Shown piece by piece: positions 31,165-63,800 of a DNA stretch of 64,000 nucleotides. The position numbers were made by a program, and so were the translations under genes. Each line of letters begins with the position of its first letter. Within the stretch, counting starts at the first letter, position 1. The stretch is from Plasmodiophora brassicae. Lineage: Eukaryota. The stretch spans positions 496,001-560,000 of the forward strand of contig CP145425.1 of NCBI GenBank assembly GCA_036867785.1. The letters run 5' to 3'. The notes under the pieces were generated by a model that ran no database searches, was not told the DNA's origin, and saw nothing but the letters and a program-made list of their open reading frames with translations.

Positions 31165-31345
31165 CGACGCCCACCAACCACCGCCTTAAATCCTCCGCAC
31201 CGCCCCAAAACAACGATGCCGCCGGCTGCATTCTTTGGCGCCTTTTTTTGCTGTTTGTGCCACTGCCACCCCGTTCCGTGTCCCCGAAGTGCCAGAGACC
31301 CAAACCCCTGGCCTGGTTTTCGTTTACCAACAATGTTCGAGCCTT

Positions 31346-34066: not shown

Positions 34067-34313
34067 GAGCGCCGGGGGTGGCCGGTGGGCGGACTCAACG
34101 AACGAGGACCCGGACGCGCTGCTACGGCCGGATGCACCCGATGGGATGCGAACGAACCCGCCCGCTGCCGTGACGACGAGTGTCGCACCCGCACCCTAGG
34201 TGCCTATCTTGACGATGCACTCTAGTATCAAGTCGTGTACGCGATCCGACCTGGACCAACCTGGCTAAGATATCTCTTCCCACACGGAGGGGCGCTCTCC
34301 CCGACCTGATCGA

Positions 34314-35597
34314 CTAGCTAATGCACTGTATGGACGTCCTCAGCAGGATGTCGGTTAGCGCGTCGAACACCATTGCCACGTTGTCGGCGTTCGTGCTGCA
34401 GGTCACGAACGACCGCAACGGCTCCTGCTCAACGTTCGGGTACGCCTGCTCGAACTTTCGTCGGATGAACTCGACGCCGGCGTCGAACGTCGGCTCGCCG
34501 TCGTAGTCGGGGAACGCGATGCGCAGGTCGTACTGCTTGATCTTCTGCTGGAACAGGTCCATCTTGTTCAGGAACAGGATGACGCGAATGCCGATGAGGT
34601 ATGGGCTGTTGCAGATCTCGGTGAACAGCCGCAACGATTCCGCCATGCGGTTCACGCGCGCGTCCTCGTAGAGCGTCTGGTTGTACTCGGACAGGGCGAC
34701 GACGAAGATAATAGCGGTCACGCCTTCGAAGCAGTGTACTGTCCACGACGTATGAGCCAGCAATAGGGGCCAACGCCCAACGGCGCTTACGCCATTTCCT
34801 TCTTTCGTTACGCTGCCCGCCCACGTCGATCACTTTGAACCTGGCCGAGCTCTTCCACATGAATTCCTTCTCGGTAATACCTGCGGCATGTGTCAGCGAC
34901 CACACTGGTGCACAGGCGGTCGTGGTTGGAACGGCAACCTGTGGACGGCCTTCTGAACATGATCACGTCTTGGCGAGTGGGAAGGTAATCCTTCGCGGTG
35001 ATCTCCAGGCACCGGTCCATGAAGTACGTTGCGGAATCGTGCAAGTCGGCGTGCGGCACGGCGCGGCGCACGCCCTCGTCCTGCCAGACCTGCCTGATCA
35101 TCTGGCCGATCTCGGGCGTCGGTTGCAGGGTCGTCGGGTCGGCCTGCAGGAAGAACCGTTTCGCCTCGAACGATGCCGGGCGCATCCTCGTGTCCAGCAC
35201 TGGGTCCAACCGGTCGGACGCCTTGATCAGCGCCTGCCAAACGTGTCATCACGGCTACCACGCGCGATAGGTAGCAGGGCACGCGTACCACAGTGGTAGC
35301 AACGACGTCGGCGAAGATCGGCAAACGGTATTCCATGCGGTCCCGGCGCGGCATACCCACGCCATGTATATTAAACAGCTGCTTGAGGAGCGTGGATTTG
35401 CCTGAATCGCCTGCGACATAGGCGTCAGCCTCGGATATGGGCCCCATGCGGATCAGGACCAGACCGGTGCCGAGCAGCAGCAGCTTAATGACGTTGCGCT
35501 GCCCGTGCTTCTCCGACACCATCCCGTTGTCCAGCTGCCGCGACAGCATCCGCTCGCCGTCCTGCACCTTGTTGCGCATCCTCGGGCAACATGGCAT
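34314..35597 (-). CDS. Heterotrimeric G-protein alpha subunit (copy 1), multi-exon
   Basis: KLLLLGTGDSGKSTLLKQ, DSATYFM, YLPTRQDV, DVGGQRNERRKW, HCFEGVTAIIFVVALSEY, FLNKMD, FVTCST. Confidence 0.93.
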
Positions 35598-35901
35598 CGG
35601 CCAACCCAAAGCGTCGTTGTTGCCGTTCCGGACGCCCCCCTCCCCCCAAAACGCAGCGCCCGCCCGCCGGGAATGCCCAGTGTGGCTTGAGGGCTGACTG
35701 GCCAGCCGACGACGGGGACCTTCGCAGCGGCGTTCGCGCGGACAGCCGGTTGGACGCCGGAACGGTGATGACTGCGGGGCACACAGACTGACCGCAACTG
35801 CAGGCGACAGACAAAAAACGGCCACTGGCCATCCATCGCTCAGCGGGTCGGGGCGATTAAGTATCGCACTGTGCGACGTCATTTCCATTCCGGGTCGGGT
35901 C

Positions 35902-38212
35902 ATGTCGGATGGGGTCGGGTCGAAGCTGTCGATGCGGATCCCGGCGCGGTCGTCGCTGCGCCGCGGGTCGACGGCGCTGACGGCGCTGGACGGCGGCGCC
36001 GGGAGCCTGTTCGCGCGCGCCGACTGGGATGAGGTCGCCGAGGAGATCGGCGAGGTGTTCTCCCTGTCGGAATCGATCGACCTGATCAACGGCCGACGGT
36101 TGATCACGGAACTGGACGAGCGCCTTGACCTGGATCGCGTTCTGCAGGACGTCCACAGCAAGGACCAGTTGCAGCGGTTGTATTCGGGCGACATCCTCCT
36201 GTCGTTGCTCGTTGGCGGGCAGCTGCCTCCGGAAGCCCCCCGATCTGAACGTCTGGGCAATGCGGGCCGTATTGCCAGGCAGGTCGTAGATAGCGGCGCG
36301 TACCACTGCATCCTGCAGAATCTGGGCCGCGCTGTCGCCGCCATTCACCGACCTGATACACTGGTGTCGGCACCGCCCTCGTTCTGGACGGATTCGAAAG
36401 AGATCCGCCTGCATTTCAATATCGTGCTCGTCGTGCTCATCACGCTGCGGGAAGTGCATCTGGCGAATTCGCAAATCGCGGGCAAGACGCTGGTTGAATT
36501 CGGCCTCGACCTGGTCGCATCGGATCAGTGCGATCTGTACCCGTTGAAGAAGGTTCTGCAGCTGATACGTCTGTCGTTGCTCATCACGTTCGGAGACATA
36601 TCGAGCGCCCAGTTCGACCGCCCCGGCTACCTGACCCAGTCGAAAGCGCGGCGACGGGACGTCTTCAAGGTCTGCAAGCACATTAGCGAGTGCTTCGGGC
36701 CCGTTCTGTGTATTCCGAATCCCGTGCATGAATCCGGGATTGAGCTGGTGACGTTCAGCAACACGCCACGTGCTCTGGCGCATCGGGCCACGTACCTCCG
36801 ATCCTGTGTCCACCTGGGCTATTCTGACATGGAGGACTACGTGGACCTGGCAAGCGATGGCCATGCTGAGCGTCCGGAAACGTCATCGGAAGCCTTGTAT
36901 CGCACTCTGCAAACCAACCTGAGACAGTCCGTTGTCGCTCTTCTAAAAATCCTGCTGTCTGTCGCACCGAGCGTTCGCCCCAGCGCCCAGATGGTCAACA
37001 GCGACAACGAGTTCATCATTGCGCCCGGGCTCACGTCCCTCGGGGAGACCCTCGAACGCGCCAGGCATACGGAAATCATCACCAAGTCCATTGCGTTCAT
37101 TCTTCTTGCTCTGTTGAAGTGCTTCCGGCGCGGCCACCCGCTCCAGTTCTGCTCCTTGCTGTGCCTTCTTCAGGACAAGAATGCCCTTGTCCTCATCCTG
37201 AAGTTTCTGAACCAAAATGTTTCTGGGTCGCTGATGAAGCGCAATGACGTCGACGCGATGAGGTACACCGTACTGGAACCCGTACGGCCAGGCTCGTCTA
37301 ACTTGTTGCCGCTAGCCCATTCTCTGAGGAGATGTGGAAGATGCAGGATATGGATACCGTTTTGGAGTCTATCTCGAACGCAGCGCGTCGGTTCATGTCA
37401 TGTACGCTTGTGTTATCATCATGCTGAGCGTAATAGCAGCGCTGCAAGGCCCCTGTTGGAGGAAGTACTCGGCGTATTCGAATTTGCTGCGCGTATTGCA
37501 GAAAATCTCGAAGAACGCGCCCAGGCAAATTCGCGCCCTTGTCAAGTTCCGTGCTCCGGTAATGGGGTTCCGGCTGCGTCATTTAGATGTGGTGCGTGCG
37601 CTCACTGTCTGCGCAGACGATTTTGAAGCGCCTCCTGCAAATTCCGCAGCTCGACATAATTCTGTATACGCTGAAGCTATTCAAGAGCCTGGCACCCTAC
37701 ATGGATCGCAAATGGAGAACCGGTTGCATTGTTATTGGTCTGCGTGGAAGGCCGCTCTGCTGATGCTGCTTTGTAGACCACATGGAAGTTGCCAATGGCG
37801 TCTATCTTCGCATACGGATGGACGTCATGGACGACTGGCTGGACCTGACGCCAGCCGATGGCGATGCCCTCGAGCGCGAGATCAGTGTCGCCAAGGCAAG
37901 CGCCATTTCTTGTACGCATCCGGTCGAGTGTCTTCTGACCACGTTACGTCAGGCGATTCGACAGGCATGCCAACAGTTTAACGCCAACAGGTATCAACAA
38001 CCGGTTGTGAGCCCCATTGTACGTCATGTACCGCGCGTCCAGTTTTCGCCCGCCGTCTAACGGGCTTCCGTCAGTACCTGCTGCCTCCGAACGCTGGCGA
38101 GGACGAGATTCTAGAAGCCGCCCTGCAAGAACATCGCGTTGCCCTGTCGCCGGAATTCAAAGCCTGTTGGCGACAATGGCTTCTCGAGGAAGTTCCGAAC
38201 GCAGTCGTTTAG
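35902..38212 (+). CDS. Striatin-interacting protein (STRIP/FAM40/Far11; STRIPAK component), multi-exon
   Basis: VALLKILL, RHTEIITKSIAFILLALLKCFR..H.LQF, LILKFLNQN, CWR....NLLRVLQKISK, VYLRIR....DDWL, last exon LSPEFKACWRQWLLEEV*. Confidence 0.85.
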
Positions 38213-38293
38213 ACCCTCGACAATGTACGTATTGTATAATCCCCGTTCAACGCATTCCCATTCGTCTGGTCAATGGTTGCGGTACGTACGCGG

Positions 38294-38962
38294 TCATGCC
38301 CTCACACTGCTGCTGCTGCGGGTCCGCGTTGCACCAGCCTCCTGCGTCGGACGTTAACGTGACTGCCGCCTGTTGCTGTTCGACCGTAGCACGCGGGGAC
38401 TCACCTCGACCCTCTTCCGGATGCGGCGCTGTCGCTGCGCCATCGTCTTCGACAACCTGTCCAGAAGCCCAGACCGAATGCCGTTGAAGCCGAGGTCGAT
38501 CGACGTCAGGTGCGATCGCGATACAGACGCTTCAATAGCGCGTTCGATCACTTCGGCGCCGTCGTCGCCGATCCTGTTGCCGAACAGGTTCAGCGTCCTC
38601 AGCGAGCGGTTCAGGGTGAGCGCCTCGGCCAGCGCGATTGCTCCGGGAGACCCGATCGCGTTCCAGCTGAGGTCTAGGACTTGCAGCGTCGTGCTCCGGG
38701 CAACTGCCACCAGACGGGTGACCGACTGCTTTACAGGCGATCGTCGCACAGCACCTGTACCTGCGAGCGCGATGTACTGTGCGCCCGAGTCGCGTATCAG
38801 ATTCCTGGACAGCGTCAGGCGCGTCAGCGTCCTCGACCCTGCGATCGCCTGGCACAGGCAGGGCAGCGCGTCGTCCGTGATCAGGTGCAGGGTCAGGTCG
38901 ACGTGCGTCGCTGTGCGGACGGCCGCCGCCTGCTCCCTCAGACGGCTGCTCTCGGCGCCCAT
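38294..38962 (-). CDS. Small RNI-like leucine-rich-repeat protein with an N-myristoylation motif
   Basis: MGAESS start; LTRLTLSRNLIRDSGA, LQVLDLSWNAIGSPGA, LRTLNLFGNRIGDDGA, LTSIDLGFNGI. Confidence 0.85.
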
Positions 38963-39293
38963 ACTCTCCGGCCTATACCGGATACGACGTGTGTGTCAAC
39001 CGGCAGTGTGGTGGGCCGCGTGCCTCCAGTCGTGCGAATATCCCCGACTCGGTCGGCAACATCTGGCACCGCCTGCCCACGTCTGGATCTCGCGGGTGTG
39101 CGTTACGCGTGCCCACACCATGACGTCGCCTTCCCGATGGGACGCGCACTGTTCCGCCGTTTGTTGCCGGTTCGACATTGCCCGATCCGCTGCCCACGTC
39201 TGTGTGTGTGTGCGTTGTTAGGGTGGATATTCGTGTACTATCTGGGATCGAACGGGGTACTCAGTGTGCGCTTGGTTGCGCGGCACGATTGAC

Positions 39294-40527
39294 ATGTTCT
39301 CGTGCTGCCGGCCCAGCCGGCAGGTGCTTCCGGATGAGCCAGCGGCGCCCGTCCCCGATCAGGCCGTGCAGCGCGCCCTGGAGGAGGAGGCGCTGCGCGC
39401 CCGCGACATCATGAAGCTGCTGCTGATCGGGCCGGGCGACAGCGGCAAGAGCACGCTGTTCAAGCAGACCAACGTCGTGTACGGGACCGGGTTCACCGAC
39501 GCCGAGCGCGCCGCGTTCGTCGGCGAGGTGTACAACTCGATCCTGTCGGCGCTGATCGCCCTGGTCGACGCCTGCGACACGCTGGACGCCGATCTGGACG
39601 CGAAGATCCGCCCGGAGGCGGTCGCCGCTCGCGACCTTCTCAAGGGCGTCCCGATCGGCACGCGGATCGACAGGCGGGTCTGCGACGCGATCCGAACGCT
39701 GTGGGCCGACCCGGGCCTGCAGAACGCGTATGCGCACCGGTCCAGGTTCCAGCTGCACGACTCGACCGCCTACTTCATGGAGCGACTCGGCGACGTGAGC
39801 GCCGACGGGTACGTCCCCACGCAGCAGGACATCCTGCGGGTGCGCGCGTCGACGACCGGCATCCTCGAGCGCGACTTCAGCGTCCAGGGCAGGACGTTCC
39901 GGATCCTGGACGTCGGCGGCCAGCGCACGGAGAGGAAGAAGTGGAGTACGTCCCGTGTTGCGCGCTCCTCCCGTCTCGTCGTGTGCGCGCTAAACCGACC
40001 TTCGTGAACTGTGTGCAGTCCGATGTTTCGAGGGCGTCTCCGCCGTCATCTTCGTGGCGTCGTTGGCCGACTACGACCTGATGCTGTACGAGGACGAGAC
40101 TGTGAACAGGATGGCGGAGGCGCTGAACCTGTTCGGCGAGATCTGCAGGCTGCCCTATTTCCGAAACACGCCGATCATCCTGATCCTGAACAAGAAGGTC
40201 GCGGGACGTTCGGACGCGGGGTCGTCCAGGTTGCACTGACGGTGTCGGCGACAGGACGTGTTCAAGCAGAAGCTGGCCGATTCGAGCCTGGCCAACCTGT
40301 TCCCCGAGTACGCGGGCGGCGCCGACTACGAGGCCGGCGTCCGGTTCGTCCAGGAGCGGTTCCTGGCGAAACTGCCCGCCGGCCTGTCCGTCGAGCCGTT
40401 CGTGACGTGCGCCTGCGAAGTCGACAACGTTCGCCTCGTGCTCGATCGCGTGATCGACCTCATAGTCAGCAAGGCGTCCGCGCCCGTTGTCATCGCACCG
40501 GGCGCTGCTACCACCACGACGCTATAA
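39294..40527 (+). CDS. Heterotrimeric G-protein alpha subunit (copy 2), 3 exons
   Basis: KLLLIGPGDSGKSTLFKQ, FQLHDSTAYFM, YVPTQQDILRVRASTTGI, DVGGQRTERKKW, CFEGVSAVIFVASL, ILNKKD, FVTCA. Confidence 0.95.
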
Positions 40528-40736
40528 ACCTCACTAGAGATTCATCTCGAACCAGGTGGTGGATGGATGGCGTCGTGTAGGCGATATTTCCGTCCGCGTG
40601 ACCACAGCATGGGTACGCTGGGAGACCCGGCAGGCAGGCGCCCCCGTTTGCTGCCGATCTGTACGCTGGGTCGGTAGATATCGCGTCGCGGAATCAGTTC
40701 GAGAAAGGGTCGATGGCGGCGTGCGAGCGTGGAGCG

Positions 40737-43218
40737 ATGCGGCTCCTTGGCAGGGCGGTGCTGCTCGCCAGCGTCATCGTGGTGGGCACGGTCCGCGCCG
40801 ACTGCTACATGGTACGGCGGCGGGCGCCGTCCTCTCCGGCAGCATCAGCAGCGGGCACTGAACGGTCGGGGTGGTACAGCACAACCCGCGCGGCAGCAAC
40901 GACCGCAACAGGGAGCAGAACTCGAACCGCAACAACGCCAACCGCCTGTTCAACTCGCAGAACAACGCGGCGGGCGGGTACCCGTGGGCGGGCGACCCGA
41001 CGCTGGTCGGCCAGCCCGACCCGCTCATGTTCTTCGCGACGTCCAAGCTGCGCCTGGAGTGGACGATCCAGCACAGCTGTGGCCCGTACGGCAACGCCGA
41101 GTGCACGCTCATCATCCAGTACATGAACGCGCCGGCCAGCACGAACCTGATCCGCGACGGGTACCCGACCGGTCCCATCACGCAGCGCGCCCCCGGCTAC
41201 AACATGTCGACGTTCATCGACCCGAACCAGAACGGTACGCCGCCGCCGGGTCGCCCGTGACCGTTGCTCGTCGTGCGGGGCGCGCTCACCATGTCACGAT
41301 TCAGCGGACGGGACGAACCAGATTCCGCTGCCGCCCGGGTTCTCGTACGCCACCGGGCAGCAGTTCGCCGCCAACGACCCGTACTTTGGGACCGGCGTGG
41401 ACCAGGCGACGCTGGCGCAGAACTGGGCCACGTTCTGCGCCGGCGGCACCGTCGGCCCGTACCGGGGCGTCGAGTTCGGCGTGCACGAATCGTGCGCCAG
41501 CTACGCGCGCTGCCGGACCACGTCGAGGAACCAGGGCCTGTACACGGCCGACCAGGCCCTGGGCGGCAACGACGCGTCCTACACGCGCCAGCAGGCGAAC
41601 CAGAACCGGTTCGGCCTGGAGTGCCAGGAAGAACGCGACTACTACCCGTACTGGAACCCATCAGGTAGCCCCCACCAAGGCACCATTGCCACCGCCCTCC
41701 GTCGTCCTGACATGGCGCAGAGTGGAAGGACATCGCGGTGCTGACCTCGAATTCGTCGTGGTGCGCGTACATGCAGGCGCAGAGCCAGAACATCATGGAC
41801 CGGTACTACTGCGTCATGCCGGCCGGGGCCACCGCGCTGGCGCCCATCACGCAGGCGGCCTGCGTTCGCAGCCTGGGCACGTGGACCCGCTGGCCGAACT
41901 GGGGCCTGCCCGCCCCGCCCTGCATCCAGCACGCGACATCGCGCGACAACCACCTCGGCAACGACCAGGTCGAGATGTTCGCGGGGCAGCCGCAGCCGGT
42001 CACGGCCAACTACGTCTGGACGATACCGGCGTCGCTGCGCGGGCAACGATTCGTCGTCCGGTTCCGGTACAACATCTCGGCGACGACGACGGACGCGTAT
42101 GCGGATTTCAATTCGCCGCCGGGCAAGATGACGAACAGCGCCCTGAACTGCCAGCGCGGCGCCGTCGGCGCCAACGGGGGCGGCCAGTGCAGTAACGACC
42201 TGTCGCAGACGGGGGGGCCGGTGGCGCTGTACAACAACCCGTACGTCCTGCTGTGGAACGCCGCCCAGGAGAACGACGGCATGCAGCATCGGTACCTGGC
42301 CCTGGCGGTCAACACGGCGCAGGTGGGCCGGACGTTCCAGGACCGGTCGTACGTGATGGAGGTGCGCCAGGACATGCCCAAGTGCACCGGCCAGGTCATC
42401 AACCTGAACGTTCGCGGCAAGCGCGGCAACATTGTCCAGGCTTACCGTACGTCACTGGATCGGATGCGTCGCGCGTCGCCGACGTTGACGTGGGTGCGCC
42501 AGCGGCGGTCGAGTACGACTGGGTGCCGAACCACGTCCAGGCGACGCAGCAGGACTGCTTCGACGTGCAGTGGACGGGATCGGATTTCAACCCGGCGGGC
42601 GTGGCAGGCGAGGGTGCCGACCAGACCGACCGGCACAACCTGGTCGAGTTCCAGACGGCGGGCACGAACCCGTCGTCGCCCGACTACGCGCACCTGATCC
42701 CCAAATGGGGACCCTCTGTCGCCCTGTTCAGCGCGGCGGACGCCAAGATGCTGGCGTACGCGAACCAGTCGTTGCCGGCCTGCGCCAACCTGGTCGCCGA
42801 CAACGGCAACACCAACAACCAGTACAGCAACTGTGCCAAGCTGAACGCCGCCCCGAACACGTACCGGCACCCGACGTTGCTGTCGTTCCCGATCGGCGGG
42901 TACGTGGCCGGGACGACGCGCAACAACAACTTCTCGAACCGCCACCAGAAGCTGCACATCATCATCACGAGTTCGATCACGACGGGCGTCTGGATCGCCA
43001 TCGCCGTCGTCACCAGCATCATCGTCGCCAGCGCCGGCGCCTGCCTGTACGCCTGGCGTCGCCCGAACTCGTCGCTCGGCCGCGCCGTCAAGTCGCTCGT
43101 CTACGGGCGCCGCGCGTTCGACGGCCCCCAGCCCCAGAACGACACCGTCAAGTACGCCGGTTTCCAGGACGCCGCCCCGGCCGCCGATCCCGCTCCCGGC
43201 GCCCCGGCCGCCCCATGA
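40737..43218 (+). CDS. DD3-3-like type I membrane glycoprotein, multi-exon
   Basis: Signal peptide, then ADCYMHNPRGSNDR...RLFNSQNNAAGGY, LEWTIQHSCG, GLECQEERDYYPYWNP, SRDNHLGN, GRTFQDRSY, NLNVRGKRGNIVQAYP, TTRNNNFSNRHQK, C-terminal TM. Confidence 0.85.
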
Positions 43219-43545
43219 GCGACCCCCATCCGCATCCGATCGCCCCCGTTACACGTCTGACCCCGGGTGGGTCACCGCTGCTGCAGCTTCCCCGGCCGTC
43301 CAGTCTATTTTTGTGAATCACAACCGGGAAACGAACTGTCGTCTGCGTCACTGGGGACGTCGTCGCTGTGGCGAACTGCAAACGCGCGGCCCGCGGCCGG
43401 CGATGGCTCGGACCTGTCGAGACCTAAATTTAGAGCGAGGTCCTAAATTTGCGTGACTGACGGCACGACCCGGTGCCCTTCGTCGGTCGGGCGGGCGGAC
43501 AGCAGTTGCGTTGCGGCGGTTGGTCAAACAGCAACGCGTAGGGGG

Positions 43546-45077: not shown

Positions 45078-48000
45078 TCAAGGGCGGTCGGGCTGACTGG
45101 GCGCAGGCCGGCCTTGATTCGAGGCATAGCTGGCCGGGTGTCGGCGCTCCGCTCGGCTGAGCGTGGTGGCGAACTGGCTGGCCAGGTGGCCGTCCTCGAC
45201 CGACTCCGGCCTGCTGCCCATCGTCTGGTGCAGGTCGGCAGCGGCGATCGTCATCATCATCATCCGGACGGCCAGCTGCCAGACGCTCTCCAGGATGTCC
45301 TCGTTCAGCGACGTCCCGTTCGCCATCCGCGTGCGATCGCCGAACACATCGGTCGAGGACGTCGCCAGGGAAGGCGACGTCGCGTGCACCGGCATCTGCA
45401 GGCCACGATCCGGCTGCCGTCCCGGCTTCCACATCCCAAGGCGGAAGTGTTTCGCCGACGCCGACGACGTCTGCTGGCTGACGGAGGCCTTCGCCTTGCT
45501 GACCGTGTTGGAGCAGAACAGGAAGACCAGGGCGATGTTCAGCAGGTCGCAGGCCAGGAACGCGCTGTAGTAGACGAGGTACCCGGCCAGGTACTGGCCC
45601 GGGAACACGACCGAGAACGTCCACAGCGCGCACTGCATCATGAGCACGATGCAGAACGCGGTGCAGACGCCGGTCACGAAGCGCCCGACCGACAGGTAGG
45701 CGCGCGCCTGGTCCGGGTGCGTGTCCCGCATCGACGCGGCCGCCTCCGACAGGATCGCGAACAGCTGCCTGGCGACGATCAGGAAGCTGACGCTGCAGAC
45801 GAGGCACACGCCAGCGACGAGCAGGGACGCGGCGTCGAACAGGGTGACGGCCCGGGCGGGGATGGCGATGCCCGCGACCAGCAGCGTGGGGACGGCCAGC
45901 ACCAGCAGGGCGTTCCCGATGAAGTACGGGTAGTGGAACCCGGCCAGCAGGGCCGAGGCGGGCGCCGTCGACATGCGCCGGATGCGGTCGCCGAACGACC
46001 AGATGAAGATGATGAAGAAGGTGAGCAGGTGGAACTGGACGACGACAGGGACGACGCCCCAGAGCGCGTACGCCCAGATCGGGGCGGGCGGCGCCCCCGA
46101 CACAATGACGCAGGACGCGGCGAACCGGACGGCGCAGATCGACGTCGCCATGCCCAGGCAGGCGTACACGGCCCGACGCGCGTGCACCTTGACGACGAAG
46201 CGTCGCGTGCGCCTGGCGAGCTCCATCGCGATCAGCAGGAACGCGGCGTACGCCACGATGAACCGTCGATGGACGGTGGCGTCGTCAAGGACGACGTCGT
46301 GGTAGGCGGTGCACGGCGACGTGGGCGGGCGACGCTCCATGTACAGCATCAGGGCGAAGTCGGTCAGGTGCGTGCACGCGCACGTCACGGTGCCGTTCGC
46401 GCCGCCCACCGTCGCGCACCCGGCCGTCGTCCAGTTGCCGCGCGCCACGTCGAACGTGACGCAGACCGGGCGCCGCACGACCGCCGGTTCGCACGCCCCC
46501 AGCGCCGCGGTCGCGTTGTCCCCCACCAGGAGGGCCATGTCGACCAGGATCGGCTCCGACAGGTTCGCCACCGTGTGCGGCACAGGTGCGGCGCCGGGTT
46601 CGTTGACGACGAACGCGTTGACGGTGACGACGGGACTGATGAGCCGCGGGTCGTTGCCGCCGCCGACGCCGCCCGTCGACGACGACCAGTTCGTTCGTTG
46701 CAGGCCGATGCTGGCCATGGGCCCGGCACCCGGCGGCAACAACCGCATCGTCGACAGCTGGGGCAGCGTGACCGGCCCCGTCGGGCAGGGGCGGCGTCGC
46801 CGCCCGTCGTCGACGACCCAGACCTGGGTCGTGAAGGCCGCCGTCGCGATCGACGACGGGCGCTGGCAGGCGATCTGGGCGTCCAGCTGCGCCGCCCCGA
46901 TCCGGTCGACGAGGGCGTGGGCGGACGAGGGCGCCGCCGTCGCCGACGCCGACGCCGCCTGCGCCAGGTGCGCCAGGCCGCCCTGCGACAGGCCCTCGGC
47001 CTGGACGAGGTCCAGGCCGAGGTCGACGACCGACCGCGACGTGTTCGCCGACAGCGCCCGCCCCGTTGCCAACGACGACAGCGCCTGGGCGACCTGGTCC
47101 GGCGGCACGGTCCCGTTGGCGGCGGCGTTCGCCTTCGTCAGCAGGGCGACGAGGTCGTGTCGCGCGGCGTCGACGTCGACGTCGTCGCTGGCCGCCGAGA
47201 GCAGCAGCAGCGCGCCCGTCTGCACGAGCGTGACGACCTCGCCGGGGTTGGTGACGGTCGCCGACAGGTTGGCGATGGCGGCCACCGTCAGCGACGCGGG
47301 CGGCGCGTGCACCTGGACGACGACGGGGACGGCGGCCGATACGATCCGCGTGCCGACGATCCCGGCGCGGACCAGCACGACGAGCGTGTCGTTGCGGGCG
47401 GGGTCGCCAGCGGGCAGGCGGACCTGGGCGCCGGCGACCGCCGACGACACGGTCGCCAGCGCGTACTCGGCCCCGCCCGACGCGTCCCGATACGTGAACG
47501 AGTAGAAGAGCGCGCTCGTCGTCGTCGTCGTCCAGCCCCAGGACGTCAGCGTGAACGTTGACGCAAGGGCGACCGGCCTGACGTCGTTGCACGAGACGGA
47601 TAGGCGCCCGCCGGTCGGCGCAGACGGTACGACGAGCGCGAAGGTCCCGTTGCCGACGACGCCGTTGACCGTTACGGTCAACGCGATCCGGTAGGTGGTG
47701 CCAGGCGCCAGGACGTTCGGCGACAGGCGCAGGGTCAGCGTGTCGGCGGGCGGGACGTCGGCGCTGGCGTCGACGTCGAGCTGGTCGCAGCGCCACTGCG
47801 ACTGGAACGACGACCAGGGCGCCGGCACGCCCGAGACGGACCCGTACAACGTGAACGCCTGCGACGGGTCCAGCACGTCCTGCGCCCGAACCGAGACGGC
47901 GAGCGGCGGCGGCGGCGGCGGCGGGCGCCGTCGGGATGGGCTGGGCGAGCGCGCCGACGCCCGCACCACCACTGGCCGGGATGTGATCGGCGCCCGCCGT

Positions 48001-51000
48001 GCTGACGTTGACGACGGCGCCGGCGCCCGAAGCATCTCCATTCGCCGGACCCGATGGTTGCTGCCCCAGGGGACACACGTCAGCGACCGCGGCCAGCACG
48101 TTCGCACGCGCGCGCGCGCGTATCGTACTATTGGTCGGAGAAGAACAGGGTGGAGCCGTTCAGGAACAGGCCCAGCGGTTCGTTCATGCCGGCGGACGTC
48201 GGCGCCCCGTCCTGGAAGGCGGGGCTCCCGCGCCCGGCCCACGTCGTCACGTACCACGACGGCGCCTGCAGCATTCGGATGCGGTTGTTGGCCCGGTCGC
48301 ACACGAACAGGTTGCCGCGCTGGTCGACGGCCACGTTGGTCGGCAGGTTGAAGGCGGCGGTGGCCGCCGGGCCGTCGGCGAACCCGCCGGCGCCCGTCCC
48401 GACGCCGGCGATCGTGGTCACCTGGCCCGTCGGCGTGACCCGCCGGATCCGATGGTTGTACTGGTCGGCGACGAACAGGTCGCCGCCGGGGCCGACCGCA
48501 ACGCCACCGGGCGTGTTGAAGCTGGCGGCCGTGCCGGCCCCGTCCGCGAACGACGCGTTCCCGCTCCCGGCAACCTGACGACAACGGGGCGTGAGGTGAT
48601 GGGGCAGGCGGCGGCGCCGTCGTTCCCCCAACGAACCGTGGTGACGACGCCGGCGGGCGTCACCTTCCGGATGCGGTGGTTGCCCCACTCGGCGACGTAG
48701 ATGTTCCCGCTGGCGTCGATGCAGGCGGCGTACGGCTGGTCGAACAGGGCGCCCGCGCCCGTCCCGTCCCGGTAGCCGGACGCGCCGCCGAGGCCGGCGA
48801 ACGTCGTGACGCGCCCCGCCGGGCTGATCTTCCGGACGGCGTGGTTGTACCAGTCCATGACGTAGACGTTGTCGTCGGCGTCGACGACGAGCTGGGCGGG
48901 GTTGTTGAACCGGGCGGCCGCGCCCTGGCCGTCGGCGAACCCGGCCGCGTCGCCGCCCGCCCAGGTCGACACGGCGCCGTCCGGGGCGATCTTCCGGATC
49001 CGCTGGTTGAACGAGTCGGCCACGTACAGGTTGCCGCGCGAATCGCCCACGACGCCCCTGGGCGCGTTGAACGCCGCTTCGGCGGCGATCCCGTCCGCGT
49101 ACGATGCGACACCCGTCCCCGCGTACGTCGTGATCGGGCCGGGCTCGAACGCCGACGACGCGACGGCGCTGATCGCCACCTTCCGGATGCAGTGGTTGCT
49201 TCGGGGCACGGGGGCGTCAGACGACGGCAGGTCGGCACACGTGACGGTCGGGCGTACCCGTAATCGCTGACGAGGACGCTGCCGGTCCCGTTCAGCGCCA
49301 GGCCAGCGGGTCGGTTCCACATGGACGACATCGGCGCGCCGTCCGCGTACCCGGGCGTCCACGTGCCCGCCCAGGTCGTCACGTACCACGAGGCGGACGC
49401 CTGCAGGACGCGGACGGTCGTGTTGCCCGTGACGTACACGTTGCCGAGGGTGTCGACGGCGACCAGTTCGGGCAGGTCGAGCTGGGCCTGCAGGGCGGGC
49501 CCATCCAGGGTGCCCTGGACGCCGTTCCCCGCGATCGTCCGCACCGCGCCCGACAACGTCGAGATCGTCCGCACGCGGCGGTTGCCCTGGTCGGCGACGT
49601 AGAGCGTCGTGCCGGCCGCGTCCAGGCCGATCCCGGTCGGGTTGCTGAACTGGGCGGCGGTCCCGTCGCCGTCCGCGTACCCGGCCGTGCCGCTGCCGGC
49701 GACGGTGGTGACGACGCCCGCCGCGGTCACCTTGCGCACGCGATGATTGCCGAACTCGGTGACGTACAGGCTCCCGTCGGCGGTGTCGACGCACGCGCCA
49801 TACGGCTCGCTGAAGGCGGCCAGCGGGCCGGCCGCGTCGACGTAGCCCGACTGGCCGCCGCTCCCAGCGAGCGTGGTGACCCGCCCCGTCGGCGACACCT
49901 TCCTGATCGCGTGGTTGTGCCGATCGACCACGTAGACGTTGTCGTCGGCGTCGACAACGACCTGGGTCGGGCCGTTGAAGCTCGCCGACGGCCCCGGCCC
50001 GTCGGCGAACGCGGGCGACCCGCTCCCGGCGAACGTGGACACGGTGCCGTCCGGGGCCACCTTCCGGATCCGGTGGTTGCCCGAGTCGGCCACGTACAGG
50101 TTGCCGCGCGCGTCCAGGGCCAGACCGCGCGGCGAGTCGAACCGGGCGGTCCCGATCGCGGGCCCGTCGCCGTACCCCGGCGACGTGCACGCCCCGGCGT
50201 AGGTCGAGACCGTGCCCGACGTGTACGGCGACCAGCGCATGCTGGCGGGCGTCGACTGGACGCCAGGCGCGGGCGCAAGCCCCCCATGCACCAGCTGGAC
50301 GGCCCGAACGCGATGGTTCCTGACGGACGCGCGTTGGAAGGGAGGGGAGGCAACCTCGCCAATGCAAACAGGGGGCAGCGTTACCATTGGTCGGCGAACA
50401 GCAGGTTCGTCGTGCCGTTGACGACGAGGCCGAGGGCGCCGTTGACCGTCGCGGACGTCGGCGCGCCGTCCTGGAACGTCGCGGACCCGTCCCCGACGAA
50501 CGTGACGACGTACCACGTCGGCGCCAGCAGCAGGCGGATCCGGAAGTTGCCCTCGTCGGACACGAACAGGTTGCCGTCGGCGTCGACCGCCACGGCCGTC
50601 GGCAGGTTGAACTGGGCGCTGGTCGGGTGCCCGTCGAGGAAGCCGCCGGCGGCGCCGCTGCCCGCGAGCGTCGTCACGTCGCCCGACGGGGACACCCGGC
50701 GGATCCGATGGTTGTTGCGGTCGGCCACGTACAGGTCGCCGTTGGGCGCGCAGGCCAGGCCGGCCGGCGCGTTGAAGCTGGCCGCGTTGCCGGTGCCGTC
50801 GGCGAACGCGGCCTGACCGCTGCCAGCGACCTGTGGCGGACGCGGGGCCATGAGCAGGTCGCGACGACGACCGCGTCGACCGCGCTCCTACCGTGGTCAC
50901 GACGCCCGCCGGCGTCACCTTGCGGATGCGATGATTGCCGAGCTCGGCGACGTACAGGTTCCCGATCGTGTCGATGCAGGCGGCGAACGGCTGGTTCAAC

Positions 51001-52610
51001 AGGGCGGACGGGCCGTCGGCGTACCCGGCGACGCCCAGGGCGCCCGCCACCGTCGAGACGGCTCCCGACGGCGCGATCTTCCTGACCGCATGACAGTACC
51101 GATCCACGACGTACAGGTTGCCGCCGGCGTCGACGACCAGCTGACCCGGCAGGTTGAAGGCGGCGCGCGTGCCGCTCCCGTCGGCGCAGGCGGCGGTGCC
51201 GTTGCCCGCCCACGTCGTGACGTTGCCGCCGGGCGCGATCCTGCGTATGCGCCCGTTGCCCGCGTCGGCGACGAACACGTTGCCGGACGCGTCGAGGGCC
51301 AGACCCATCGGCGAGTTGAACGTCGCCGTTGCGGGCGCCCCGTCTTGGAAGGTGGACACCGCGAGCGTCCCGGCCAACGTGCTGACGGGCCCGGGCGCCA
51401 CTGCCCGATCGGTCACGACCTGCACCTTGCGAATGCAATGGTTGCTGCGACGACACACGTCAGCAAGCGGCCGTGGGACGCGGGCGTACGTCATCGCGGC
51501 GTACTTGCTATCGGCGACGTAGACGGCGTCGGACCCGTTCAGCGTGAGACCAGCGGGCCCGTTCAGCATCGACGACGTGGGCGCCCCGTCCCGGTACCCG
51601 GGTGCCGTCCCGATCCAGGTGGACACGTACCACGACGCGGACGCCTGGAGCACCCGCACGCGGGCGTTGCCCCAATCGGCGACGAACAGGTTGCCAGCAG
51701 GGTCGGTCGCCAGCGCCGACGGGTAGCTGAACCAGGCCTGCATCGGGGGGCCGTCCAGGAACCCGGACGCCGACGACGCCCCCGCCATCGTCGTCACAAC
51801 GGTCGACGTCGTGTTGACGAGCCGGATCATGCGCAGACGATGCCTGTTGCTCTCGGCGACGTACAGGACCGTCCCGTTCGAGCCAACCGCGATGCCGACC
51901 GGGCGGTCAAACGACGCGACCGTGCCCGGCCCGTCGTTCCCGGTCGCAGCGCCGCTGCCCGCCACGGTCGTCACGACGCCGCTCGGCGTGATCCTCCGGA
52001 CGCGATTGTTGCCCTGGTCGGCGACATACACGTTGCCGTTGGCGTCGATGCACGCGCCCGACGGCCGGTTGAAGTAGGCGAGGGGGCCGTTCGCGTCCAG
52101 GTACCCCGAGGTGCCACCGTGGCCGGCTGCGAAGCGATACCGTCGCCGCGTCAGCCCGCGTTGTTGAACGTCGCGGAAACGAACGCACTCACCGAGCGTT
52201 GTGACGCTGCCCGACGGCGATATCTTGCGAATGGCGTGATTGTTCACATCGATGACGTAGACGTTGTCGCTGGCGTCGACGACGAGCTGTGCGGGGGCGT
52301 TGAAGCTGGCCGACGTGCCGGGCCCATCGGCGAACGCGGCGCTGCCCGAACCGGCGAACGTGGACACGGTTCCGTTCGGGGCAACCTTCCGGATCCGGTG
52401 GTTGCCGGAGTCGGCCACGAACAGGTTGCCCTTGGAGTCGAGCGCGTGCCCCGTCGGCGTACTGAACGTGGCGCTCGTCGCCGTCCCGTCCCGATACCCG
52501 CTGGTCCCGCAGACGCCGGCGTACGTCGACACGCTGCCTGGGGCGGATCCAGTCGCCAGCCCGGCAAGGGCGGTCACGACGACAGCGACGTCCCAGAACA
52601 GGGGACGCAT
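45078..52610 (-). CDS. Large adhesion-GPCR-like receptor: signal peptide, 4 NHL beta-propeller modules, Pro-rich linker, REJ/PKD-like region, GAIN/GPS, 7TM, Ser/Thr-rich tail; multi-exon
   Basis: Repeated FN.P.G.A.D..GNLYVAD.GNHRIRKI; REJ-like L.LSPNVL.PG.TY...PTGG.L.V...FTL...GW...LFYSF.Y; GPS PVCVTFD....WTTAGC......VTCACTHLTDFALML; seven hydrophobic helices at ~45510-46270. Confidence 0.85.
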
Positions 52611-52827: not shown

Positions 52828-54220
52828 TTAAGTGGGCGGCCCAACGCCAACGCAACGACCGGAGCAGGTGCCGATGCAGGTCTGCATGGAGCACCCGACA
52901 CAATGGCACTGGATCGTTGTCGTTGCCTGCTGGCTGCACGTGCGGGACGTTCCCGACCCCGAGCACACCGTCGAATACGTCGTCACCGGGTAGCAGTCCT
53001 CAGTGCAGCAATCCAGGCAGTGGTCGTAGCAGGAGCCACAGCCGGCCACCCGCCCTTGGAACGACTTGACCAGCGCCGCCGTCAGGAACGCCAGCTGGTT
53101 GCTGTCGCTGCAGACGCGAACACCGGGGCCCGCCGGCTGAGCCACCGTGTACACAGCACGGCTGTCCCCCGTTGCATCCAACGCGAACGGGTTGTTCCCC
53201 CAGTCGCCATCGTTCGACGCGAACGCCGTCGATGATGCTGATGCAGATGAACCCTTGACATTGGCACCGGTCAGCTGTTTCTTGGCACGCACAGTGATCG
53301 ACCCGGACGCCAAATCACAGGGCAGGTTGCCGTTGGAGCACGCTCCCGTAACGACGCCGTTACCCATGCGATCAAGGGCGATGTTGACGGATGTGATCGG
53401 GTTGGCGGCCACTGACGCCGGGACGTTGGTACCCTGGAACGTGAGCGTCGTTCCAGAGCCGTCAGCAGCGTCCTGAACAGTCGTGTGACCGATTTCGGCA
53501 TTGGCGATCCACCAGCGCCCGGAATCGTCGGTCAGCAGGGACAACGACTTGCTCCCGCATGCCATCTTCCAGTCATAATCTTGTACGACCCGGGTGGCGA
53601 TGTACGGCCCACCAATCGTCGCCGTCATGATGGCCAGGATGGTGATCCAGGTGAGCACATGCGTGACCCTACGTGGGCGATAGAATTTAGACGTGTTGGT
53701 AAACAGTGACGCCAGGTGATACGTACGCGCGGCGGGCGTCACGTACGAGGTAGAGCAACGCAAGCGATGGGATACCTCCTGCTGTCAGGCTGACGAGCAG
53801 CATGAAGAAGATGTAGAACCCGTTGGCCACTGAGTGGCCTTTCAGGCCAGGATGGTCGAGGGGGTGAGCGGTGTACTGGACGTACCCGTAGGCCGTGCCG
53901 ATCAGGACGCCGACAAAGAAGACGAACGCACCAAGCGACAGGGCGACCTCACCGGAGACAGTTGGAAACCGAACCTGCCAGGTCGGGAGACGGCATCGCA
54001 ACCGACAACGACGCTTGTCCTGACGGGCCGGCCATGTCTTGCCAGTGGGCCCCGCTGGAACTTCTGCATAGGCCGACGACGGAAAGTCGTTGGTCAGCGT
54101 CTGGTAGGATGGAGGGGGCGGCCCGTCCTCGAGTTCCGCGCCGGGAAACGGGTCGTTTCCAGCGTGTGCGCCGACCAAGGCAAGACAGACGCAAACGGCA
54201 TACGTCGTCGGCATCGACAT
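52828..54220 (-). CDS. Hypothetical membrane protein: signal peptide, ~3 TM, Cys-rich C-terminal domain
   Basis: MPTTYAVCVCLALVGAHA; hydrophobic segments in ORFs 53687-54406 and 52828-53763; tail GCGSCYDHCLDCCTEDCY...CHCVGCSMQTCIGTCSGRC. Exon joining is inferred. Confidence 0.6.
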
Positions 54221-60236: not shown

Positions 60237-60854
60237 TGGAAGCAGCACTGCAGCAGTGACCAGGGGGCGAACTTCGCAGTTCGGCGACCGCGGCCTAGGG
60301 CTACGGGACGGTACGGACAATTCTAAAACGACGTCGCGGGGGCACTGACGCACTTCGTCCAGAGTCGCGCATCCCGCGCATTCGTTTGTGCGCGACAGCG
60401 GGCGGCTACCCGGAAACGACAATTGCGTCCAATGGGGCTACCCGGAAACGGCCATTTCAAGGAAAATCTTTGAGAAATAAGGATGTCAGACATATAATAA
60501 ACGACGAGAATGAATGTATTTTACAACTCACATTAATGCTGAACGTGGCGCCACGATTTGCAGCTAAAGGAGTACATGTTTGCTCGTTGCATCAAAAGAG
60601 TCCGATTGCCAGCTGGTGATGTCAGTCTGACCTGGTGATAGAACGAGTTTCGTTCCCCTGACAAATCCTTCGGAACATAAGTTGCTGCTTCTTGATGTGT
60701 GCTTGTAATTACAATACCGTTTGTTCGGCTGCAATGCCATTCGTCGGCTGCAATGGCGCACGCTGGACGCCTGGGCGCGCTTTTTTGACAACGAAACGAA
60801 GTGGCGCCCCGGCGGACTGCAGCTCCCACTGCGGCCTGCGGGGCCCAGCATGTA

Positions 60855-63800
60855 ATGTACCGTCGGGTTCATGCAGTCAACGTCGTCGTCCATGTGCGAT
60901 ATCGTCGGGGTCGGCGTTTTGGTCAGGCGGCGCCTGCCCTGCCAGCCGATCGCGTCGTCGATGGCGGGGCGGCGCTGACGCCCAGCGCACTGGACGACTT
61001 CTGGCAGAATCCGTCGATCCCCGTTGCCGTCCGCCTGCTGTCGCAGGAGGTCGATCCCGGTCGCGGATGGGCCATATTCCGCCATGTGCTCGGCAGTGGA
61101 CTACGACCACGCGAGCCGTTCTTCCGGCGCGCGCTCCAGTTCTGCCAGCGATCGCTCCCGTCGAAGGCGCCGCACGTCGTGCGGACCGCCGCGTTCACAG
61201 GCGTGTCCGTCAGTACGAACGACGGCCTGTTCTGCACGTTTCTCGGTGCGTGTAAGGCGGGAAACCCGCCGCTACTCGACGAGGCTCTCGACGTCTACCA
61301 GCGGCTTCGTGGACCCCGGTCCCACAACGTCATTTGCAGTCTGGCCAGTTTGTGCCGGCTGGCTAAGCGCCCGGAATCGGCGTTGCCTCTCTTGACCGAC
61401 GTTCTGGACCACTTTGTGCAGTTCAGCGAAATGCTCATGTCGATATTGGCGGCCAGCTGCGCCGAAGCGCAGAGCGCGCAAGGCGCTGACACCGCCGAAC
61501 GCCTTCTCGAATTGGTTCGTTCCAAGCGCGTCCCTCCCTATCAGCAACACCAGCTCTACGCGAACCTTATCAAGGCGCTGCTGTCTCAAGCGCGATTCGA
61601 TGCGGCGATCGACGCGCTTTCTCTGCTCGACACGATCGGCGTGCCCCCATCCAATCACGTTTACGCGGTTGTTTTCAGCGCTCTGACGAAGTCCTCATGC
61701 ATTGACCAGGCGGTGACCGTGTTTCAGTCGATGATGGAACGCAGCATTCCTGTGTTTGCCCCCGATCTGACGACCCTGATTGCGGCGTGTGGCAGGTCTG
61801 CATCATTCGACGCTCTGCAGGCGCTGTTTAAGGGCTGTCGAGGCACGCCACTGCTTGACGATGAGTTCGCCGTCAATGCGTTCGTTGCCGCGTTCGGGCA
61901 TTGTAACAGGCCCGACGAGGCGCGGCGTGTTCTTCGTGCGGCGACGACGCCGAACGTTTCGAACTTCAACGCGCTGATCGCTGCGTACGCGAAGAATGGG
62001 CAGCATGCGAAGGCGATACAGGCGATTGACGACCTGAGAACAAGTCGCCTTCCGCTCACCATCGAGATATACACGAACATGCTGTCCGTCTACGCAAAGG
62101 CGGATCAGCTTGACGAGGCCATGGCCGTGTTCCGAGAAATGGTTGCCCTCAACATGAACGTCGACGAGCCTGTACTTGCGATTCTGGTCACTACCTGCGG
62201 TCGCCGCGCGGACAAGCAGAGGGTGAACATGCTCGCTGAGTACGCAGAACGCAATGTGCTCCTGGCGAGGAAGATCGTGTTCACATCGTTCGTTGCCGCC
62301 TATGGGCAGTGTTGCGATTTGCCCTCCATTAAGCTGCTGCATCGTTTCGCGTGGACAAGCGGATCGTCGACGCGGCTGCTGCAGGATGAATTTGTCGTCA
62401 ACGCGTTCATTTCAGCCTACGGGCACTGTCAGCGCCCGGAAGAGGCGCACGCCCTGTTCTGCACGGTCAAAGCGCCTCGTGTTTCCACGTACAACACCAT
62501 GATCTCTGCGTACAGCAACAACGGCATGTTCTCCAGCGCCATATGCGTATTCGAAGACCTGCGCCAGGCTGGCCTCGAGTGCAACATTGAGGTCTACAAC
62601 AACGTCCTATCGGTATACGCAAAGGCGAACCTCGTCCCCACAGCGCTCATATTGCTCGACGAACTATCGGCACGGGGCCTGAAGATTGGCTCACGTGTGC
62701 TCGCTTGCCTTGTTGCCGGGTGTAACGCGCTGGGGCCTTTAAAGACGCTTCACCAGTACGCGGAGGAGAACGCGCTGCTCTCGAACGACAACGTATTCCC
62801 GGCACTGGTCGCGTCTTATGGTCAGTGTCGGGATTTGAAGACGATCCAAACGCTTCATGAGTCAGCGATCTCCAACGGCCTCGTGCGGTACGAATTCGTG
62901 GTCAGCGCGTTCATTGCCGCCTATGGGCATTGCGGGCGCCCCGTCGAGGCGCATGACGTCCTTCGCAGCACGCCTCACCAGCGTGCATCGACGTTTAACG
63001 CCCTGATTGCCGCGTACGCGAACAACGACATGCTTGACAGTGCGATTGCGACATTCGAAGAGGTCAAGGCCATGCCGGATCTGGAGGTCACCCTTGAAAT
63101 CTACAACAATGTCCTATCGTTATTCGCCAAGGCGGATCGTATACCAGACGCCATGAACATGTTCGATGAGATGGCTGGTCGAGGGATCGACGTGGGTCCT
63201 CCGGTCCTGTGCTGCTTGATCTCTGCCTGTGGCCGCAATGCACAGACCGCTTTCCTGCGCAAATTGCAGCAATACGTCACCGAGCACGCGCTCCTTCACA
63301 ACAGGGCTGTCTTCAATGCCTTCGTCACCGCGTACGGTCGCTGCTCAGAGCTGTCCAGCATCCAGGACCTGCATCGACTCGCCAGCGAGAACGCCCTGCT
63401 AGATGACATCGGCGTTGCAAACAGCCTCATATCGTCGTATGGGCATTGTGGACATATCGACGGCGCAGAACACCTGTTCCTGTCGTTGAAGGCAGCTCCC
63501 ATTCTTGTCACGTTCAACTCCATGATTACGACGTACGGGTGGCATGGCATGCTCCCGGACGCGTTATCCACATTTGAGCGACTGAAGGCGACGGGGATCA
63601 CGCCGGACGCGATCACGTTGCTGTCCCTGCTAACGGCCTGCAGCCATACAGGTTCCCTCGACGACGCGAACGCGATCGCCGCCGAATTCGAACAGGTGTG
63701 GCGCGTACCTTTCGATGCACGCCACACGAACTGCATGATCAATCTGTATGGGCGGGCGGGCAACCTGGACCAAGCAGAGCACCTTGCCCTGTCGTCCGCG

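Follow-up and report, generated by a model that had tools for sequence, protein, structure and literature searches.

A predicted GAIN-bearing seven-helix receptor with a TOM1-like core and four NHL modules in the clubroot parasite Plasmodiophora brassicae

Results

The receptor gene and its transcripts

The window analysed here is a stretch of 64,000 nucleotides from the genome of Plasmodiophora brassicae, the rhizarian clubroot parasite (assembly GCA_036867785.1, contig CP145425.1, positions 496,001 to 560,000). On its minus strand it carries a gene for a 2363-aa protein in which a probable signal peptide, four NHL modules, a linker, a REJ-type region, a GAIN domain with its GPS motif, a TOM1-like seven-transmembrane (7TM) bundle and a cytoplasmic tail follow one another (Table 1). 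A preliminary description, made from the sequence alone, had presented this gene as an unusual G protein-coupled receptor of the adhesion type (aGPCR). The genome surveyed (G000) comprises 25.3 Mb in 20 contigs and is compact, GC-rich and eukaryotic. Six-frame reading places the ATG at 52610 and the stop codon at 45078-45080, exactly the gene limits described previously. Seven GT-AG introns of 59-68 nt each leave the 2363-aa frame without a stop codon.

Table 1. Features of the receptor gene and of the neighbouring gene cluster (window coordinates)
Feature	Position	Strand	Residues	Basis and remarks
Whole gene, 8 exons	45078..52610	-	2363 aa	gene model; 7/7 introns skipped in run X2
Probable signal peptide	52545..52610	-	1-~22	hydropathy peak 1.62 at aa 4-22; L017 N-terminus similar
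NHL module 1, six repeats	51414..52541	-	24-357	Pfam; introns 52192-52127, 51504-51445
NHL module 2	50289..51395	-	364-690	Pfam; introns 50891-50831, 50384-50320
NHL module 3	49168..50222	-	713-1044	Pfam; intron 49257-49199
NHL module 4	48030..49143	-	1053-1380	Pfam; introns 48636-48575, 48128-48061
Pro/Ser/Arg-rich linker	47904..48029	-	1381-1422	sequence reading
REJ-type beta region	47286..47903	-	~1423-1628	Pfam REJ on aa 1476-1628, E 5.2e-10
GAIN domain, helical subdomain A + beta-sandwich subdomain B	46335..47297	-	~1625-1945	AlphaFold model, Foldseek, VIA
GPS motif	46350..46469	-		Pfam GPS E 2.3e-9; H1934-L1935|T1936-DFALML; Gly-Cys kept; Thr1905 at S10.49
Seven-helix bundle, THH1/TOM1/TOM3-like, GPCR-type fold	45471..46310	-	1954-2233	model, profile comparison, Atlas
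Cytoplasmic tail	45081..45470	-	2234-2363	conserved amphipathic helix at 45311-45264, by eye
GRK-type kinase	~34.1-31.3 kb	-		best PDB matches GRK1/5/6/2
G-alpha, directly ahead of the kinase	~35.6-34.3 kb	-		cluster 31300-40600
DUF3402/STRIP-type gene	35.7-37.6 kb			cluster 31300-40600
LRR gene	38.4-39.0 kb			cluster 31300-40600
Second G-alpha	39.2-40.5 kb	+		cluster 31300-40600

Transcript support was taken from the contigs of four public runs (X1-X4) belonging to three studies. The RNA status of these runs is a software guess and not on record, and the skipping of introns backs it. The receptor introns are skipped exactly at all seven sites in X2, at five in X4, at three in X1 and at none in X3. 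One bridging contig (X2, 4629 nt) runs from the NHL exons via the REJ-type region and the GAIN domain up to the third transmembrane helix (TM3), and the exon joint 48060/48129 is present in three of the four runs. The last exon begins within the final NHL repeat, and the paralogue L017 has the same layout and the same intron sites. The NHL-to-7TM chain is one spliced, expressed gene, which supports the single gene assumed in the preliminary description. An NHL array and a GPS-7TM part encoded by separate genes, or brought together by mis-assembly, would be compatible with the fact that no contig of the four runs covers the gene end to end and that some contigs of X1 and X3 retain introns (from DNA or pre-mRNA). 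This objection fails because of the splice joints and the 4629-nt contig, and virtually no weight is given to it.

A 318-aa frame lies upstream of the receptor gene (52831-53784, minus strand). It has an N-terminal hydrophobic stretch, a Cys-rich C-terminus and no Pfam match. One contig joins it to receptor exon 1, which is not proof of one transcript.

The ectodomain

The signal peptide is probable and belongs to the softer points of the earlier assignment. The four NHL modules that follow are about 330 aa long, 52-63% mutually identical and built of six ~55-aa repeats apiece; 20 of the 24 repeats were found by a motif regex and the other four were read off the alignment. Pfam NHL and TEN_NHL match all six ectodomain pieces scanned, in agreement with the four roughly six-bladed, teneurin-like modules already recognised from the sequence. 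Each of the four modules has, close to its end, one of the introns 2, 4, 5 and 7, which occupy an identical alignment column and agree in phase; two further introns share one site in modules 2 and 4. These shared sites imply that the ectodomain expanded via tandem duplication of an intron-bearing unit. A genome search with TEN_NHL gave one match only and missed even the receptor gene, so it is not usable for NHL gene counts.

The closest solved sequence to module 3 is annotated as 'teneurin-like protein' (9ifo, 9pt5; E 5e-64), and animal teneurins match at E ~1e-14. The likeness to teneurins thus lies in the ~55-aa repeats in sixes, the TEN_NHL match and this best PDB match. The receptor differs in carrying four such modules in tandem, and no Pfam match to a YD-repeat shell or a C-terminal toxin-like domain was obtained in any receptor exon scanned. 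Animal latrophilin has teneurin as a separate ligand, whereas the predicted NHL propeller of P. brassicae belongs to the GAIN-7TM chain itself.

The Pro/Ser/Arg linker is present as described earlier. The REJ-like region is likewise recovered by Pfam, as a partial match confined to positions 270-420 of the 452-position model, in its C-terminal third.

The GAIN domain and the structural model

An AlphaFold2 model of aa 1604-2234 was built from a 45-row alignment (pLDDT 84.5, pTM 0.58). A single-sequence fold prediction (pLDDT 41.9) was set aside. In the model, a helical subdomain is followed by a beta-sandwich that closes with the strand starting at T1936, and then by seven long helices with pLDDT mostly 80-97. 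The seven transmembrane helices of the preliminary description are thereby recovered; a plain hydropathy threshold of 1.6 misses TM1. All of the top ten Foldseek matches are GAIN structures of aGPCRs, with BAI3 at E 1.8e-8. VIA-align gives Z 18.2 to BAI3 (4dlo; rmsd 9.7, 275 aligned), Z 17.1 to latrophilin-1 (4dlq; rmsd 4.3, 245 aligned) and Z 16.9 to GPR126 (6v55; rmsd 3.5, 232 aligned), and BAI2 is likewise among the structural matches (Foldseek/VIA) in this Z range. The GPS aligns best with solved aGPCRs, and its spacing to TM1 resembles theirs. A GAIN fold directly before a GPCR-type seven-helix bundle is therefore well supported by the model. The bundle itself reaches VIA Z 15-17.7, with no distinction between receptors of class A and class C, and no solved TOM1 or GPR137 chain is among the 50 matches listed in either VIA comparison.

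The receptor family in the P. brassicae genome

A genome search with GPS matched 14 places, and a fifteenth locus was found via its 7TM. Twelve of these 15 loci precede a TOM1-like 7TM, two are polycystin-1-like by topology and one precedes a PF06011 TRP-type domain. Among the twelve GPS-7TM genes, L018 (divergent) and L029 (intron-split) are less certain. Close paralogues share 41-47% identity in the 7TM and all keep the full bundle. The N-terminal domains vary: four NHL modules are found in two genes (the receptor and L017), a CAP ectodomain in three paralogues, a GH18 chitinase-type ectodomain in one (L046) and LRR ectodomains in three (L029, from a weak Pfam match; L015 and L016, as judged by eye). 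One database protein combines CAP, REJ and GPS. A C-terminal SH3 domain is present in L029 and L046. The 12-gene family keeps the REJ-GAIN-7TM core and swaps the N-terminal sensor, as in the shuffling of animal aGPCRs.

Several loci of this survey deserve separate mention. L046:3573-9952 (G000:C7:1.25 Mb) reads GH18 - REJ - GPS - 7TM - SH3, and L029 (LRR, SH3) lies 30 kb away. Tandem P-T-T-R/K stalks stand between sensor and REJ in L016, L017, L018 and L025, reaching ~1900 aa in L018. In L027, an intron splits the Stachel-like strand directly after H-L-T. At L045:3342-4121 (G000:C1:283 kb) there is a short, GAIN-less 7TM of the same family, apparently a stand-alone relative. In L020:2616-6175 (G000:C2:728 kb) the GPS is followed, in a separate frame, by a PF06011 fungal-type TRP membrane domain, a putative third kind of membrane module behind GAIN. 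A strong REJ match (E 1.6e-32) at G000:C13:59555-60739 has no GPS match listed nearby.

Relatives outside the genome and the identity of the seven-helix bundle

The GAIN-7TM alignment was used as a hidden Markov model (HMM) against 1.84 billion representatives and retrieved 1380 proteins at E 0.001, of which 68 reached 1e-10. When the GAIN-7TM part was submitted to a word-index search of proteins at longer lengths, none of 8000 candidates reached E 0.001; with the 45-row alignment, 9 of 7978 and 4 of 8000 candidates did, mostly GPS/REJ-only, so the word index is too insensitive for this family. Pfam was scanned on 84 of 150 listed relatives and on two others. Among 50 relatives chosen because they span the GPS and most of the 7TM, PF06454 (THH1/TOM1/TOM3) was found in 19, of which 16 lie above the cut-off, and 7tm_2 (PF00002) in none. 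The 36 further relatives contain PF06454 in five cases, and eight of them are true GPS+7tm_2 receptors that were matched over GAIN/GPS only.

The 7TM sequences were compared by hhalign, with P0042 and P0091 excluded from the sets. The P. brassicae 7TMs align with 22 PF06454-labelled 7TMs at 99.6% over 256 columns and with the 7TMs of 34 unlabelled relatives at 99.7%; the value for seven adhesion 7TMs, a shallow control profile, is 0.07%, and reversed controls gave 1.7% and 0.6%. An HMM of the 22 labelled 7TMs matches nine of ten paralogues (receptor E 9e-17; L018 missed) and none of seven aGPCRs. Not one of the ten paralogue 7TMs matches 7tm_2 at E up to 5, and the scores of the receptor 7TM to solved aGPCR 7TMs are negative. 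By Atlas features, the 7TM alone lies at 0.91-0.94 to the THH1_TOM1, GPR137_N and PRRT3 clusters. Genome-wide searches with PF06454 and PF00002 found no match, and their positive controls were equally silent. The receptor 7TM is, as judged from these profiles, THH1/TOM1/TOM3-like and not of the adhesion type 7tm_2, which bears out the earlier impression that it is not secretin-like.

A very divergent true aGPCR (class B2, 7tm_2), inherited or transferred, would account for the best GPS matches being solved aGPCRs, and for the position of GPS and 7TM taken jointly in Atlas, where the aGPCR clusters are nearest, yet at 0.83 or less. We consider this origin highly improbable in view of the missing 7tm_2 signal in paralogues and full-span relatives, the PF06454 matches of the latter and the restriction of the eight real aGPCRs to the GAIN/GPS part. 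Since the 7TM is not secretin/adhesion-like by these comparisons, the GAIN-7TM linkage appears to be separate from the holozoan one.

The organism could be traced for ten of the 30 relatives looked up; the other 20 are environmental records. Within Rhizaria, these are three P. brassicae proteins and proteins of Spongospora subterranea, Cercozoa sp. M6MM (two) and Lapot gusevi. Outside Rhizaria, they come from the euglenid Ploeotia vitrea (Discoba) and from Rigifila ramosa and Diphylleia rotans (CRuMs). Single transcriptome records can be contaminants; the two CRuMs sequences cluster with each other in the 7TM tree (SH-aLRT 99), which argues against stray contamination. Both have degenerate GPS cysteines and keep H-L|T/S. 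The Spongospora GH18-GPS-7TM protein, which looks like an orthologue of L046, pairs with it in a GAIN tree (SH-aLRT 97). Many branches of the 7TM tree, which was built by a quick method, are long. Resolution is poor over most of the GAIN subdomain B trees, where 13 of 66 branches and 1 of 40 are starred, and a single origin of all TOM1-type GAINs (p-AU 0.19) is neither rejected nor shown. The receptor GAIN clusters with that of the polycystin-like L023 of the same genome in two trees (SH-aLRT 98 and 90), which hints at local cassette exchange.

The preliminary description had called the receptor independently assembled. This applies to the GAIN-7TM linkage, which would be separate from that of Holozoa. 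It does not apply in the sense of a one-off, as the core occurs in 12 genes and in Rhizaria, Discoba and CRuMs. The phrase even understated the case, because only the NHL ectodomain is local.

The GPS motif, cleavage and the Stachel-like strand

The GPS retains the H-L|T motif and the TDFALML strand noted previously, and the putative cut L1935|T1936 falls between 46365 and 46364. According to the portion of Pohl et al. (PMC13062082) consulted here, an aromatic residue at S10.49 positions the catalytic His, and H-x-S/T by itself is insufficient for autoproteolysis. With Ala or Leu in place of Phe at this position, latrophilin-1 is cleaved less, and ADGRB2 stays almost uncut although it has HLS (PMC13062082). 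The case for cleavage of the receptor is weaker than its H-L|T suggests, because the S10.49 aromatic, which efficient autoproteolysis requires, is replaced by Thr1905. The GPS called cleavable in the preliminary description thus keeps its H-L|T and Gly-Cys, and its cleavage is uncertain.

Among the outside relatives, S10.49 is W/F/Y in 41 of the 44 that could be parsed (12 of 56 unparsed). The +1 residue is Thr or Ser in 56 of 56, a count made with a search regex that already required His and Phe. The GAIN-TOM1 class looks built to cleave, and the expanded P. brassicae clade may cleave slowly or partly. The T.FA.L segment doubles as the final strand of the GAIN fold, so its conservation alone is no evidence of agonism; the earlier Stachel match stands as regards the strand and fails to show an agonist.

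The cytoplasmic tail

The tail had been described as S/T-rich. The enrichment is mild (21% against 16% in the whole protein) and reaches 28% over the first 61 residues. An amphipathic tail helix, with a hydrophobic-x-x-I-L-E-S-x-W-like pattern, was seen by eye in ten of 12 paralogues, whose tails are otherwise divergent. We take this helix to resemble an AKAP-type docking helix; a consensus search yielded a false match only, so this is a lead only.

Discussion

Proposed mechanism and its alternatives

On balance we lean towards a type-I surface receptor that acts like an aGPCR on a TOM1/GPR137-like seven-helix core. The four NHL propellers would bind a surface or polymer, such as the host root wall, the spore wall or another cell. 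The GAIN domain would hold the T1936 strand and be cleaved at L|T, although in this paralogue the cleavage is probably slow or partial. A binding event at the ectodomain, or tension on it, would loosen or free the strand, which would then act on the 7TM. The 7TM would signal via the large heterotrimeric G-protein system of the organism, with a GRK tuning the output. G-protein coupling, Stachel agonism, adhesion and mechanosensing are thus putative functions of the receptor.

The genome contains about 26 G-alpha loci (85 exon matches, grouped by hand). It also has 82 RGS matches in 25 Mb, many of them in frames of 450-550 aa that could be 7TM-RGS proteins. A genome-wide G-gamma search gave no match, and its positive control was equally silent. 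A GRK-type kinase and two G-alpha genes lie 5-14 kb from the receptor 3′ end. The N-terminal exon of the kinase has no Pfam or PDB match. GRKs are described as scarce in eukaryotes in the part of the literature consulted.

A number of observations weigh against the proposed receptor function. Only one of the seven other receptor clusters lies near G-alpha when the window is left out (P about 0.17), so the neighbourhood is suggestive only. Arabidopsis TOM1 gave no GPA1 binding in a split-ubiquitin test reported in the section of PMC2530877 available to us, and GPR137 regulates mTORC1 at the lysosome (PMC12716839); the 7TM clan is therefore no proven G-protein activator. Thr1905 is aligned to the Phe of ADGRF1/ADGRG3, and S10.49, read off the printed motifs, is Trp in three of the 12 P. 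brassicae paralogues (L027, L029, L046) and non-aromatic in nine. In the Stachel-like strand, position +2 carries an acidic residue (E/D in 48 of 56 relatives). PF06454 itself matches the receptor 7TM at E 0.016, with 15 bits against a cut-off of 25. The 7TM comparison set had been gathered with a profile of the receptor family, so that the PF06454 label alone is independent, and the TOM1-like identity of the receptor 7TM is assigned transitively.

The TOM1 and GPR137 results would also fit a receptor of the same anatomy whose output does not involve G-alpha exchange and instead runs via the tail, a GRK/arrestin-like route or a TOM1/GPR137-type scaffold. The tail helix and the C-terminal SH3 domains of L029 and L046 point the same way. 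The 82 RGS matches would be compatible with G-alphas that activate themselves and are controlled by RGS proteins. We regard this possibility as unlikely, though worth keeping in view. Its opponents are the GPCR-type fold of the model, the large G-alpha set with a GRK close by, and the TOM1-related Cand3/5, which did bind GPA1 (PMC2530877).

The protein could also be an adhesin or surface coat. Its GAIN domain would then have a role in folding, trafficking or shedding, like that of polycystin-1, and its 7TM would act chiefly as an anchor that gives no signal. The same genome has REJ-GAIN in two polycystin-1-like genes and in one PF06011 TRP-type gene, some paralogues have long mucin-like stalks or a chitinase head, and the S10.49 aromatic is lost in the expanded clade. 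However, a single helix would suffice as an anchor, and this disfavours the adhesin. All close paralogues, which are 41-47% identical in the 7TM, retain the full bundle together with the tail helix, and the GPS-to-TM1 distance is aGPCR-like. We rate an adhesin as improbable and retain the signalling receptor with a tethered strand as our preferred explanation.

Other genes near receptor loci

Another pair of G-alpha genes is found at a distance of 13 kb from the paralogue L027 (G000:C18:455000-477000; L027, L043, L044). The window position 40700-43220 (plus strand) holds a multi-exon, secreted-looking, Cys/Asn-rich gene with a C-terminal transmembrane helix and no Pfam match in the piece scanned. 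A long PPR-repeat protein with a weak E-motif match is encoded at 60789-63998 (plus strand).

Comparison with known systems

The receptor shares with holozoan aGPCRs (ADGRL/latrophilin, ADGRB/BAI, ADGRF1, ADGRG6) a signal peptide, a modular ectodomain that is shuffled family-wide, a GAIN domain with H-L|T before the 7TM and a Stachel-like strand. It differs from them in its PF06454/TOM1-like 7TM in place of 7tm_2, the REJ-type region ahead of GAIN, Thr at S10.49, the putative status of its G-protein coupling and its occurrence outside Holozoa. Lacking 7tm_2, it fails class B2 membership on the defining 7TM and keeps the design. It thus appears, from sequence comparison, to be an aGPCR by design and not by descent of its 7TM. 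The order REJ then GAIN/GPS is shared with polycystin-1, PKD1-like and REJ proteins, including the two genes so laid out in the same genome. Polycystin-1 has 11 transmembrane helices, with a soluble cytosolic PLAT domain between TM1 and the further helices and with a channel domain, whereas the receptor has seven contiguous helices and a 130-aa tail. Its match to the REJ model is confined to the C-terminal third, and it has no Pfam match to PLAT or PKD_channel at E up to 1. With THH1/TOM1/TOM3, GPR137 and PRRT3-type proteins it shares a homologous seven-helix core, and the GAIN-less L045 apparently belongs to the same 7TM family. GPR137 has no domain outside the 7TM in the passages of PMC12716839 seen, while the receptor core bears a 1950-aa ectodomain with GAIN.

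The same passages place the GAIN/7TM linkage in stem holozoans, with both domains in different genes elsewhere, and call complex GAIN-bearing N-termini holozoan-restricted (PMC12716839). The GPS is said, in an excerpt of PMC3251606, to occur in no other GPCR family. GAINs are reported in Dictyostelium and Tetrahymena in PMC3321182, the consulted part of which does not name the membrane partner. TOM1 is listed among plant candidates (bioRxiv 10.64898/2026.03.02.708220). The accessible sections of PMC3971589 and PMC13197933 hold nothing on a GAIN + TOM1-like 7TM architecture. No published description of a GPS/GAIN joined to a TOM1-like 7TM was found in a search of full text that took in few subscription papers and no supplements. 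Some of the 12 genes may already be in earlier P. brassicae GPCR lists or survey supplements, and automatic Pfam annotation shows the pair of GPS and TOM1-like domains (P0165). These genes would represent a second, apparently undescribed class of GAIN-7TM receptors outside Holozoa, on a core that seems unrelated to 7tm_2. The statements on holozoan restriction refer to receptors with 7tm_2 and, taken narrowly, still stand.

More speculatively, REJ-GAIN with a TOM1/GPR137-like 7TM might be an older tethered-agonist class near the eukaryote root (Rhizaria, Discoba, CRuMs), self-cleaving and signalling from Stachel to G protein. On this view, holozoan aGPCRs would have taken up the design afterwards, on a class-B core, and the 12 P. 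brassicae members would sense host and spore-wall polymers at the surface of the parasite. We hold this view tentatively and think it rather more doubtful than the receptor function proposed above.

Biological meaning

With a parallel class of GAIN-7TM receptors whose core is unrelated, the design would have at least two origins, the earlier one perhaps outside animals. Such a class makes testable whether the GAIN strand can be a tethered agonist on any 7TM or on class B2 only. The orphan TOM1/GPR137 clan would also gain a candidate agonist that is built in. A GPCR-pathway inhibitor is reported to reduce clubroot symptoms (review PMC9180986). For clubroot, the family offers 12 candidate surface sensors without a close plant or animal counterpart.

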